A stretch of 64,000 nucleotides of DNA, taken from positions 129,778 through 193,777 of the forward strand of contig JACQVQ010000008.1 in assembly GCA_016209685.1 (NCBI GenBank). The letters run 5' to 3'. The position numbers and the translations under genes are program-made. Positions 49,443 through 52,692 of the stretch are shown here, piece by piece; the stretch's first letter is position 1; each line of letters starts with the position of its first letter. Under the pieces are notes generated by a model, which saw only the letters and a program-made list of their open reading frames with translations, made no database searches and was not told the DNA's origin. The DNA is from Planctomycetota bacterium. GTDB lineage: Bacteria > Planctomycetota > Brocadiia > Brocadiales > Bathyanammoxibiaceae.

Positions 49443-50532
49443 TGTAGCCGCAGGCTTTAGCCTGCGTATAGAGGATACAATAGGCCCCCCAATACCTCAA
49501 CAAATAAGTAATATATTAGTAATTCGCCCGGGTGCCCTGGGCGATTTCGTTCTGACCCTGCCCGTCTTTGCCTATCTCAGGAGGAAGTTCCCACAGGCCC
49601 GCATAGAAGTCATGGGCTATCCCTCCATTGCCGAGATGATAGTGGGAAGATATTATGCAGACGGGTTCGCCCGTTTCGACCAGCCTGAGGTGTCCTATCT
49701 CTTTCTGAACGACCTCCCACTGCCTGAATGCCTTGAAAAATATCTCTCCAGGTTTGATATGATTATCTCTTTCCTGCATGAAAGGGTCTTTATGGAAAAT
49801 CTCAGACGGGTAACCACTGGCTGCGTGCTGTCTCAGAACCCCCTGCCCAAGCCCAACGGGACTACCCATGCCGTTGAACACCTCTTGTCCGCCGTGGGCG
49901 GATGGGGAGAGGCAACTGCTGAAGAAAAGACCCCAAGGGTCTTCCTTAAGGGAGAGGATAGAGGATGGGCCTCGGATTTTTTGGACAAACACCTTAACCA
50001 TTCCGCCCCAATAGTGGCCATGCACCTGGGCAGCGGTGGACGCAAGAAGTGCTGGCCGGTAGAGGGTTTCATCTGTCTGGCCTTCTACCTCAGGAAAGAG
50101 TTAGGGGCCCAACTGCTCCTGGTCTCTGGCCCTGCCGACGAGGAGGTAACGGGCTACTTCTTAAATTATACTCAACCAAGACCTCCACTACTCCATAACC
50201 TCCCCCTACCCAAACTAGCGGCCGTACTGGAGAGGTGCGACCTCTTCATAGGAAACGATTCTGGCGTAACACACCTTGCGGCGGCCACGGGTGTGGCTAC
50301 CCTGGCCCTCTTCGGCCCCACAAGTCCAGCAGTCTGGGGGCCCAGGGGTGAGAGGGTAAGGATCGTTCAAGGTAATCCACCTCAGGCGGATTGTTCTCCC
50401 TGCAGTCCGGAGGAGCGGGGTCGCTGTCAGCGGCCTGCTTGTATGGAGGTTATCACTGTAGGGCAGATAATCAGGACGGCAGAGGAGGTCTTGGGGACTG
50501 CCTGCCCTAACAGTCCGTGTCATTCTGAGTGA
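49396..50532 (+). CDS. Glycosyltransferase family 9 (heptosyltransferase-like)
   Basis: ILVIRPGALGDFVLTLP and GNDSGVTHLAAA. The true start is probably downstream of the REP hairpin at 49444-49467. The last 6 codons and the stop lie in a MITE fragment. Confidence 0.8.
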   Translation: MSPSWENSLRRNNRIDVAAGFSLRIEDTIGPPIPQQISNILVIRPGALGDFVLTLPVFAYLRRKFPQARIEVMGYPSIAEMIVGRYYADGFARFDQPEVSYLFLNDLPLPECLEKYLSRFDMIISFLHERVFMENLRRVTTGCVLSQNPLPKPNGTTHAVEHLLSAVGGWGEATAEEKTPRVFLKGEDRGWASDFLDKHLNHSAPIVAMHLGSGGRKKCWPVEGFICLAFYLRKELGAQLLLVSGPADEEVTGYFLNYTQPRPPLLHNLPLPKLAAVLERCDLFIGNDSGVTHLAAATGVATLALFGPTSPAVWGPRGERVRIVQGNPPQADCSPCSPEERGRCQRPACMEVITVGQIIRTAEEVLGTACPNSPCHSE

Positions 50533-50639
50533 GCCGAAGCCCTGAGCGTAGCGAAGGGGTAGCGAAGAATCTAGTTAGAGATTCTTAGGTCGTTTCACTC
50601 ACTCGGAATGACATCTGTTCGGAATTCTTCAGAGGTTTC
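50518..50639. mobile_element. MITE fragment lacking the left TIR
   Basis: TGTCATTCTGAGTGAGCCGAAGC...GGAATGACATCTG...TTCTTCAGAGGTTTC. Confidence 0.7.
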
Positions 50640-50817
50640 AAAATGAACGTAGATACTAGTTTATAAACCATCCCCACCGCTAGTCCCAATAGGACGCTAT
50701 CCGCTACGATGAGGGAGACGTTCTGCTCAGGTATGTACCTGGAATAAAACACCGCCGCCAGGGCGTAAGAGACAAGGGCTAGGGCAAGGAGGATGAGTGG
50801 CACGGGGTGAGCCTAAA

Positions 50818-51289
50818 TCAGATTTCATCTAAGATTTTCTTAATCAAAGGTTTTAATTGGGGTATCCTTTCTTTAATAGCTGTCCAGACTAATCTATAAT
50901 TTACTCCGAAGTAGATGTGAATCAGCTTGTCTCTCATCCCTGCCATTTCCTTCCAGGGGATTTGTGTGTATTTTTGTTTTATACCTTCTGGAACGTTCTT
51001 TGAGGCCTCCCCGATAATCTCAAATTTCTTTACGACTGCGCTTGAGGTCTTATCGTCTTCTTTAAATTTTTCAAAACTCGAGACCTCTGAAAAAGTCTAC
51101 ACAACACTACTTGTCATTCTGAGCGAAGCGAAGAATCTGGTCTTTTAGGAGATTCTTCGGTCGCTTCGCTCCCTCAGAATGACATGGGAGCAGGGTTTTT
51201 CAGAGGTCTCAACTCATATCTTCCACAAATTTTTCTATTCTCTCCATAGCATCCAGGATGTCTTTTAGATAAAGTTTGTAGTCTCTCAT
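50818..51289 (-). pseudogene. hepT: HepT (DUF86 HEPN toxin) gene interrupted by a MITE
   Basis: Own translation: MRDYKLYLKDILDAMERIEKFVEDMS, then the MITE (creating a TGA), then, after removal of the MITE and one TSD copy, an in-frame FEKFKEDDKTSSAVVKKFEIIGEASKN...MRDKLIHIYFGVNY...ILDEI* (Rx4HxY motif). ATGA overlap with mntA. Confidence 0.85.
51080..51210. mobile_element. MITE, 131-bp copy, TSD AACTC, inserted in hepT
   Basis: GAGACCTCTGAAAAAGTC...GGTTTTTCAGAGGTCTC. AACTC flanks it at 51075-51079 and 51211-51215. Confidence 0.9.
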
Positions 51290-51579
51290 AGATAGACTAC
51301 CTCTTTTAATACAGATTCTTTAATTTCTTTTCTCAAATCCTCTTTTGGCACTACGTCTACCTTTTGATTAAACCTTTCCTCTAAGAATAGGGCCAACCCC
51401 ACAAGGTCAAAAATGTCAGCACCATCTTCAAAGTCCACAAGAATATCTATGTCACTCGTTTCCTTTTGTTCCTTTCTTATGACAGAACCAAAAATGCCTA
51501 TCTCTTTCGCCTTAAAGCTGGCTTTAATTTCCTTTTTTAACTGCTCTAGCGTTCTTAATATCTCTTCCTTTGTCTTCAT
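51286..51579 (-). CDS. mntA: MntA-type minimal nucleotidyltransferase antitoxin
   Basis: GIFGSVIRKEQKETSDIDILVDF (GSx10DxD). 97 aa. Confidence 0.85.
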   Translation of the reverse strand: MKTKEEILRTLEQLKKEIKASFKAKEIGIFGSVIRKEQKETSDIDILVDFEDGADIFDLVGLALFLEERFNQKVDVVPKEDLRKEIKESVLKEVVYL

Positions 51580-51633
51580 GGCTCATTTGTCCTTAACTTG
51601 TCATTTTTAAAGGCGTCCAGAAGGATAAGCCAA

Positions 51634-51706
51634 GTAGGGTGCGTGGTAACGCACCATTTTCATTCATTTCCTATTTTTCAAGACGGTGCGTAAAAACGCA
51701 CCCTAC
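51634..51706. mobile_element. Second small palindromic element family (73 bp): GTAGGGTGCGTGGTAACGCACC ... GGTGCGTAAAAACGCACCCTAC
   Basis: Each end is itself a GTAG-headed hairpin. A 114-bp relative lies at 63373-63486. Confidence 0.75.
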
Positions 51707-51752
51707 ATTTTCTTATAAATCTCAAATGGCAACTGGTAATAGTCAATACGAT

Positions 51753-51922
51753 GAGATCTCTGAAAAATTCCACTCGCTTGTCATTCCTTCGGCTTCGCTC
51801 AGGACGGCGTCTGAGAGAGTGAAACGACCGAAAATCTCTTAAAAGACTAGATTCTTCGCTTCCCCTTCGCTGCGCTCAGGGCTTTGGCTTACTCAGAATG
51901 ACAGGCACTACGAAAGAGGCCC
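51753..51922. mobile_element. Degenerate composite MITE copy
   Basis: GAGATCTCTGAAAAATTCC...GTCATTCC...CAGAATGACAGG...AAAGAGGCCC. The right end is diverged and no clear TSD remains. Confidence 0.6.
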
Positions 51923-51942
51923 TTGGTGAGCCTTCAACATTA

Positions 51943-52692
51943 CTATCCACTGAATAGCTCCCCTTCTATAAGTTTCATACATTTATTAACATAGAACATA
52001 TCGGGTTCGTGCTTATGAGGTCGGACTCTAATTTCAAATTGGGGATCATCTGCATTAGTATTGTCAAATAAAACCAATCCTATCCCAAAAATTAGACTTA
52101 AGGGGTCCAGTCTTGAAATGTCTTCCTGGGACGAATCTTTTGGAACTACTATATAGGATTTATGGCTGAACAGCTTATACGAGCAAGCTTGTCCAAATGC
52201 CGTAATTAAGTCTCTCGAATCTGCTTTTATTTCCGCTGAAACAATTTCAGTAGGTGTTTTAACAATGTCGCTCCTGAGTGGTTCTCGCTTTCCAATAACG
52301 TCAGGGGTTCCCCATTTGTCTTTAAATTTATTTCCTCCTAAAGGGATGGCCTTAGTGCATTCTTCTAAGTCGTTGACAAGCCAATCTGCGAAAGGTTTGT
52401 AAAAATCTTCTTCCCTTATTATTTTCTTGGTCTTTGTAGGAGGTTCAAGTCCCTCTTCGCCGATTCTCTCTTCCTTAAATGACGGGTGCCGGGAAAGCCC
52501 CCGTGCAGGCCTATAAACCTCGCCAGGTACACGTGTCTCTAAATTCCAAACTGTTCCATTAATAGTATTGACAGGAATCTCTGGAAGTTCCGTGTGTATT
52601 TTTCTTACAAAGTCTGAGTAACGGAGGCCGGTAGGGCTAGATTTAAGTAATTCTATCGCCTTTGATATAATTTTCTCTCTACTCGTTGACAT
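51943..52692 (-). CDS. Orphan winged-helix plus PD-(D/E)xK nuclease-fold protein (Mrr-like architecture)
   Basis: N-terminal KAIELLKSSPTGLRYSDFVRKI (wHTH-like). C-terminal GTPDVIG...VSAEIKA...FGQACSY. AT-rich and flanked by MITE copies. Confidence 0.5.
   Translation of the reverse strand: MSTSREKIISKAIELLKSSPTGLRYSDFVRKIHTELPEIPVNTINGTVWNLETRVPGEVYRPARGLSRHPSFKEERIGEEGLEPPTKTKKIIREEDFYKPFADWLVNDLEECTKAIPLGGNKFKDKWGTPDVIGKREPLRSDIVKTPTEIVSAEIKADSRDLITAFGQACSYKLFSHKSYIVVPKDSSQEDISRLDPLSLIFGIGLVLFDNTNADDPQFEIRVRPHKHEPDMFYVNKCMKLIEGELFSG

Follow-up and report, generated by a model that had tools for sequence, protein, structure and literature searches.

In the 64,000 nt stretch of planctomycete DNA that we analyzed (termed the window), a short gene on the minus strand lies in two pieces on either side of a 131 bp repeat, next to an upstream gene that is uninterrupted. 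The locus had been described in an earlier note, from the sequence letters, as an MntA-HepT toxin-antitoxin pair whose HEPN toxin gene had recently and precisely been split by a MITE, with the antitoxin left intact. This arrangement raises the questions of what the two genes encoded, whether the repeat is a genuine mobile element that inactivated one of them, and why the toxin gene was the one to be lost. The features of the region, in window coordinates, are as follows:

50509..50641, no strand: degenerate copy of the MITE family, between the cstA remnant and a GT9 gene
50585..50803, minus strand: cstA remnant, 72 codons, in-frame, with an internal deletion of ~1.6 kb at CAGG microhomology; also present in the metagenome contig L020
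50818..51074, minus strand: hepT 3′ fragment, codons 27-111 plus stop, with the catalytic R74-x4-H79 and the AMPylation tyrosine Y81
51075..51079, no strand: TSD copy 2, AACTC; relatives have a single GAGTT here
51080..51210, no strand: MITE, 131 bp, perfect 15 bp TIRs, a single long hairpin
51211..51215, no strand: TSD copy 1, AACTC on the plus strand and GAGTT on the minus strand
51209..51289, minus strand: hepT 5′ fragment, with 26 codons that cover HEPN helix 1, then the junction TGA
51286..51579, minus strand: mntA, 97-aa minimal nucleotidyltransferase antitoxin, ORF intact, G31-S32-x10-D43-x-D45
51580..51629, minus strand: conserved cassette leader, with AAGGA ~10 nt ahead of the mntA ATG
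51634..51706, no strand: 73 bp palindrome from a second repeat family, just 5′ of the cassette; neither the same-genus genome G002 nor L020 has it here
51752..51909, no strand: degenerate copy of the MITE family, upstream of mntA

Class I HepT/MntA modules are defined by a PF01934 protein with an RX4HXY motif encoded adjoining a PF01909 protein with a GSX10DXD motif (PMC7641770). In the system studied by Yao et al. (2020), MntA places three AMP on the tyrosine of RX4HXY and thereby blocks the RNase (PMC7641770). When the flanks of the insertion are joined with one AACTC kept, the hepT fragments yield a 336 nt ORF of 111 codons in which R74-x4-H79-x-Y81 reads RDKLIHIY. This joined ORF matches the DUF86/HepT-like profile PF01934 over its entire length (positions 1-120 of 120; 106.7 bits, E 7.9e-31), and the 3′ fragment by itself reaches 90.8 bits against a cut-off of 23.5. 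None of R74, H79 and Y81 varies among 55 homologues. MntA matches PF01909 (NTP_transf_2) with 51.4 bits, carries the motif G31-S32-VIRKEQKETS-D43-I-D45, and finds the minimal nucleotidyltransferase 1wot as its best sequence match in the PDB (E 6e-12).

A sequence search of the PDB with HepT gave no match, and the tie to solved HepT structures is seen only in a fold search. Specifically, the AlphaFold model of an intact HepT orthologue (pLDDT 93.6) returned chains of Shewanella oneidensis HepT as all of its top 10 matches (5YEP, 6M6U, 6M6W and 7BXO), with TM values of 0.69-0.71 and a probability of 1.00. The class I pair SO_3166/SO_3165 of S. oneidensis (PMC7641770) likewise has its MNT gene upstream of, and overlapping, the HEPN gene; it combines PF01909 with GSX10DXD and PF01934 with RX4HXY; and its toxin shares the fold of the intact orthologue at TM 0.70. 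In contrast with the Shewanella pair, identity to the solved HepT is only 15-18%, the toxin is shorter (111 aa rather than ~130), and the MITE-split toxin gene would leave the module non-functional as a pair. Both proteins also score below the cut-offs of 60 for the NCBIfam equivalogs HepT_toxin NF047751 and MntA_antitoxin NF047752 (35.8 and 38.2 bits, respectively), so a function like that of the Shewanella pair is suggested by the motifs and the fold.

Family, motifs, gene order and predicted fold together support the assignment of the locus to the class I HepT/MntA (type VII) pairs, with the departure that the toxin gene, intact beside its antitoxin gene in class I, is here cut after codon 26. 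The ancestral HepT was presumably toxic and would have been AMPylated by MntA.

The anatomy of the cassette reveals how the gene was cut. The mntA stop codon TGA overlaps the hepT start codon ATG (51289..51287) in the sequence ATGA. From this start, hepT reads MRDYKLYLKDILDAMERIEKFVEDMS over 26 codons and then meets a TGA at 51211..51209, which combines the last T of the TSD (GAGTT) with the GA that opens the MITE. The insertion point lies just past helix 1, which spans residues 4-21 in the AlphaFold model of the intact orthologue. The 3′ fragment has no in-frame ATG, GTG or TTG ahead of M70 (50946), and judging from the same model a start there would yield 42 aa, with helices 1-3 missing from the bundle. 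From these features we infer, with good reason, that the hepT fragments have lost function. Scans for promoters and terminators returned no usable result for mntA.

In each of these particulars the reading of the earlier note was borne out. The identification as an MntA-HepT pair agrees with family, motifs, gene order and fold; the ATGA overlap of mntA (51286-51579) with the hepT start is exact in the sequence; the TGA made at the MITE junction after 26 codons is confirmed; and removing the MITE plus one AACTC reproduced the 111-codon DUF86 ORF with RDKLIHIY, for which a comparison with the DUF86 profiles had been proposed and gave the full-length match reported above. The split is also as clean as was claimed, with a bona fide MITE, perfect TIRs and TSD and no second lesion, and the antitoxin was indeed left intact, since the mntA ORF is open and its GSX10DXD motif is present.

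The interrupting element is a genuine MITE: it is short and non-coding with TIRs, has a constant 5 bp TSD, is present in many copies, and is missing from the corresponding sites of relatives. Its TIRs (GAGACCTCTGAAAAA/TTTTTCAGAGGTCTC) are perfect over 15 bp, and with up to two mismatches this TIR occurs 14 times in the window versus 0.14 occurrences expected by chance. The predicted RNA fold of the hairpin has an energy of -65.3 kcal/mol (z = -8.5). Across the genome (2.02 Mb in 14 contigs), the family comprises 58 adjacent TIR pairs and 175 blocks, amounting to 0.73% of bases. The copy closest to the hepT MITE is 99.2% identical, differing by one base (G000:C13:201089-201219). Perfect 5 bp TSDs flank 20 of the 58 TIR pairs and are 77% A+T, and nine of these 20 copies reside in DNA with a GC content of 0.42 or less, which itself makes up 6.9% of the genome.

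With its 131 bp of non-coding sequence, 15 bp TIRs, 5 bp TSD, long hairpin, dozens of copies and empty sites, the element resembles other bacterial MITEs. Unlike those, it could be assigned neither an autonomous partner nor an IS family; in this assembly, no TIR pair of 600-4000 bp and no match to the IS4/IS5-type DDE domains PF01609 and PF13586 was detected. The inner core of the MITE, GTCATTCTGAG...GAAGAATC, is common to hairpin repeats of more distant genomes of the order. Our literature search found no paper joining MITEs with anammox or Brocadia, and papers on MITEs and toxin-antitoxin systems were only tangential.

Among the 20 TSD-flanked copies, only the one in hepT splits a credible gene, and the rest lie at gene edges or in spurious frames. 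The latter include copies that appeared to split frames at C8:408730, 134764, 216741 and other positions, which were rejected as spurious and of low complexity. Several MITE copies are located directly 3′ of small toxin-antitoxin-type genes (HicB-like, UPF0150 and two DUF2283), at G000:C3:33344, C8:421801, C11:196304, C11:243690 and C11:352782. At C3:33344, a stub of 24 codons comes after a 60-aa ORF and continues into the MITE; this stub may be a cut toxin of the RelE/ParE type.

The state of the locus before the insertion is preserved in relatives. Homology begins at the cassette leader, since the blastn blocks of the three relatives L009 (from G002), L020 and L021 all start at window position 51629. 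At ~95% DNA identity, each of the three shows the empty site, where GAGTT occurs once, and an intact 111-aa HepT is encoded in G002/L009 and L020. In G002, a MAG of the same genus that is labelled Candidatus Brocadiaceae bacterium (JASEHG010000144.1), mntA is followed by an uninterrupted 111-aa hepT whose product differs from that of the joined ORF by two conservative amino acid changes. The metagenome contig L020 is collinear with the window through TauE, a 249-aa gene, the cassette, the cstA remnant and GT9. A large protein collection contains seven intact 111-aa alleles with 96-100% identity to that of G002; one of the seven occurs on 18 contigs. The third empty site, on metagenome contig Ga0209641_10384832 (L021; positions 461-715), comes with an intact mntA and with a 5 bp deletion (AAAAC) that shifts the hepT frame before Rx4H. 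The frameshift may have inactivated this hepT independently, or the 1 kb contig may contain an error.

The filled site is found in other assemblies as well. An exact look-up of the MntA sequence retrieved two further NCBI assemblies with the insertion. GCA_052360745.1 (L073) has the identical MITE and TSD, with one mismatch between 51903 and 49519, and GCA_052361005.1 (L074) is 100% identical with the same left junction, its contig ending 40 bp into the MITE. The same insertion in two other assemblies argues that it is not a one-off assembly artefact, with the caveat that the three assemblies may come from related samples.

Sequence divergence at the locus suggests when the insertion took place. 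Between the joined hepT and its intact orthologues there are 12 synonymous and 2-3 non-synonymous differences (dN/dS 0.03-0.05), and mntA gives a dN/dS of 0.08-0.27 against its orthologues. The low ratio for the split gene implies strong purifying selection for nearly all of the ~5% divergence, and because its differences are almost only synonymous, the insertion is recent. The event is younger than the split from the ~95%-identity relatives and older than that from a strain of 99.9% identity. Furthermore, the cstA deletion is shared with L020, which is without the MITE, indicating that the deletion came first and the MITE later. The earlier note had called the inactivation recent and had proposed a check of related genomes for the uninterrupted allele. 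That allele is present in G002 and L020, and perfect TIRs and TSD, the lack of a second lesion, the dN/dS of 0.03-0.05 and the absence of the insertion at ~95% identity all speak for recency.

This genome holds nine mntA-hepT-type loci related to the focal one. The mntA ORF is open at nine of nine, and hepT is dead at four. The pair is intact at the other five, which have no MITE closer than 2 kb. The paralogous MntA proteins are 32-48% identical to the focal MntA. At two of the loci with a dead hepT, besides the focal one, a member of the MITE family now stands where hepT was, such that the association recurs at three pairs.

At the first of these (locus B, G000:C13:200792-201088; L041/L061), the mntA stop codon is followed directly by the MITE copy closest to the focal one (99.2% identity), and then by bioA; this copy is without TSD (TCTAA/TTACC). 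Exactly at this locus, the same-genus genome G001 (L043/L059) has an intact 115-aa hepT, and in G002 (L044) a longer MITE has taken the place of mntA-B and two-thirds of hepT-B. The orphan MntA-B keeps GSX10DXD and shows five synonymous versus three non-synonymous changes relative to G001.

At the second (locus C, C13:132898..132611, after leuS), a hepT stub reading MSKRRD runs into a MITE without TSD, and MntA has DS for GS in the catalytic motif. A duplicate of the leuS 3′ end follows in this region (G000:C13:132100-132900).

The fourth dead hepT (G000:C8:307176-307776) has a TAG just upstream of MAGLRDKLIHAY, before Rx4H. Other genomes of the family have hepT copies that lie beside an open mntA and were disrupted, without a MITE, through internal deletions, stop codons, truncation or frameshifts, in a survey that located broken copies via mntA and whose count is biased accordingly. 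The MITE is one of several routes by which hepT is lost.

These observations lead us to favor, with a probability of roughly 85%, the reading that the locus is a class I HepT/MntA operon in which hepT has been knocked out by a non-autonomous MITE, as the first step of the two-step decay that is usual for chromosomal toxin-antitoxin modules. Under this proposal, the 131 bp MITE would have transposed into hepT after codon 26 and duplicated 5 bp. The junction TGA limits the toxin product to helix 1, and the Rx4H part is without a start codon until M70. The mntA ORF persists intact; the role of MntA would normally be to AMPylate the RX4HXY tyrosine and switch HepT off. Loss of the toxin would be safe, and loss of the antitoxin would be barred while the toxin works. 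Loci B and C would represent later steps, in which a copy of the MITE family has replaced hepT. The toxin-antitoxin cassettes would reside in A+T-rich accessory DNA, where the MITE family also lands or survives. Ordinary toxin-first erosion of selfish class I HepT/MntA cassettes is the simplest account that fits. The earlier note had offered a choice between neutralization of the toxin by a mobile element and retention of an orphan antitoxin, and the wider pattern agrees with such erosion.

Erosion of this kind has been documented for the type II systems of Photorhabdus, where 185 toxin-only and 8 antitoxin-only pseudogenes were counted (PMC13617665). As in that two-step erosion, the toxin is inactivated here and the antitoxin ORF persists, and the later stages (toxin deleted, whole cassette deleted) are found at sister loci and in relatives. 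Unlike the Photorhabdus case, the locus belongs to the type VII family and to a Planctomycetota (class Brocadiia) lineage, and a MITE takes the place of a point mutation or truncation as the lesion at three loci.

The same asymmetry might instead be adaptive. Loss of HepT could have been selected because the toxin is costly, or the orphan MntA could have been kept as protection against HepT proteins, whether they arrive with incoming elements or come from the five intact paralogous pairs. Such an explanation would accommodate the nine open mntA genes beside four dead hepT genes, the catalytic motif and the 5-to-3 ratio of synonymous to non-synonymous changes retained by the orphan mntA-B, and an insertion common to two strains. 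However, these counts are too small to carry it: the asymmetry of MITE hits (three in hepT, none in mntA) has P ~0.16 by a rough estimate, and survivorship predicts the same asymmetry because cells with a working hepT do not survive a hit in mntA. Moreover, the change from GS to DS in the orphan MntA-C suggests decay over retention, and at 32-48% identity between the paralogous and the focal MntA, cross-talk is not evident. We consider an adaptive cause unlikely, and toxin-first erosion remains the preferred reading.

A bolder version of the adaptive argument would make this one MITE family a recurrent eraser of HEPN toxin genes in a small-genome Brocadiia lineage, either through site preference or because the losses are favored, with orphan MntA proteins kept as immunity. 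We give this proposal little credence. If it were true, the genome would display a staged series, from a split gene through a deleted toxin to a decaying antitoxin motif.

Less credible still is a simple preference of the MITE family, or of its transposase, for the 5′ part of hepT or the mntA-hepT junction. All three MITE lesions do fall within the first 26 codons of hepT (codon 26, ~3 and ~6), and the two most similar copies of the MITE in the genome (99.2%) are both at hepT loci. These coincidences are countered by the general preference of the family for A+T-rich DNA (the nine of 20 TSD-flanked copies at GC of 0.42 or less), which also covers the toxin-antitoxin cassettes, with their GC of 0.36-0.41. 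Given ~79 MITE blocks in ~140 kb of A+T-rich DNA, ~1.7 would be expected on the 3 kb of hepT versus three seen, which as a rough estimate corresponds to P ~0.24. An enrichment of MITEs on hepT was therefore rejected as non-significant once the A+T preference is allowed for. The target 5-mers also differ among the three loci (GAGTT, TCTAA and AGATA), relatives lose hepT by deletions, stops and frameshifts that involve no MITE, and members of the same family border HicB, UPF0150 and DUF2283 genes too.

It is very unlikely that repeat mis-assembly put the MITE into hepT, or that the MITE is confined to a minority of cells. The concern is a natural one for an element repeated more than 50 times in a 14-contig draft, but a mis-join would not keep the two gene halves ordered and oriented with a perfect 5 bp duplication between them, and the filled site recurs in a second assembly and its left junction in a third. 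Scarcely plausible at all is the notion that the gene is not dead, with the split toxin working or precise excision of the MITE acting as a reversible on/off switch: the 5 bp direct repeats could in principle allow a rare precise deletion that restores the frame, but excision of the MITE alone leaves +5 nt and a frameshift, the C-terminal part has no start before M70 and would give the 42 aa without helices 1-3, and the usual sequel, as seen at loci B and C, is that hepT is deleted and not restored.

The locus is a new and very clean case of phenomena already known (a MITE insertion, a class I HepT/MntA module and the decay of a toxin ahead of its antitoxin), and it leaves existing knowledge of HepT/MntA systems and of toxin-antitoxin erosion unchanged. 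As a natural knock-out it is unusually clean, in that relatives keep the exact ancestral state, one dated event caused the lesion, and later stages of decay are represented at sister loci. It could serve as a teaching case and as a system for studying the activity and cross-protection of orphan MntA, the rate of antitoxin decay, and MITE mobilization in Planctomycetota of the class Brocadiia.

The surroundings of the cassette are themselves variable. In G002, a 572-aa cstA starts 14 nt after hepT, at the position of the remnant in the window. Upstream of mntA, ~212 bp (51630-51841) that comprise the right half of the degenerate MITE, a spacer and the 73 bp palindrome are absent in L020. The second repeat family, to which the palindrome belongs, has few other copies in the genome, and an Rfam search of 50300-52100 gave only a sub-threshold miRNA match on the palindrome, which we regard as noise. 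The 249-aa gene upstream of the cassette (51943-52692, minus strand) is present in L020 and L074 and absent in G002, which has ~415 bp of other DNA there; this patchy distribution among relatives marks it as a variable insert in the neighborhood. Finally, the reading frame of the GT9 glycosyltransferase terminates within a fragment of the MITE family, in the window (50509-50541, ...SPCHSE*) as in G002 (L009:3167-3200, ...CHSERSEESS*), such that the repeat supplies the C-terminus of the protein in both lineages.
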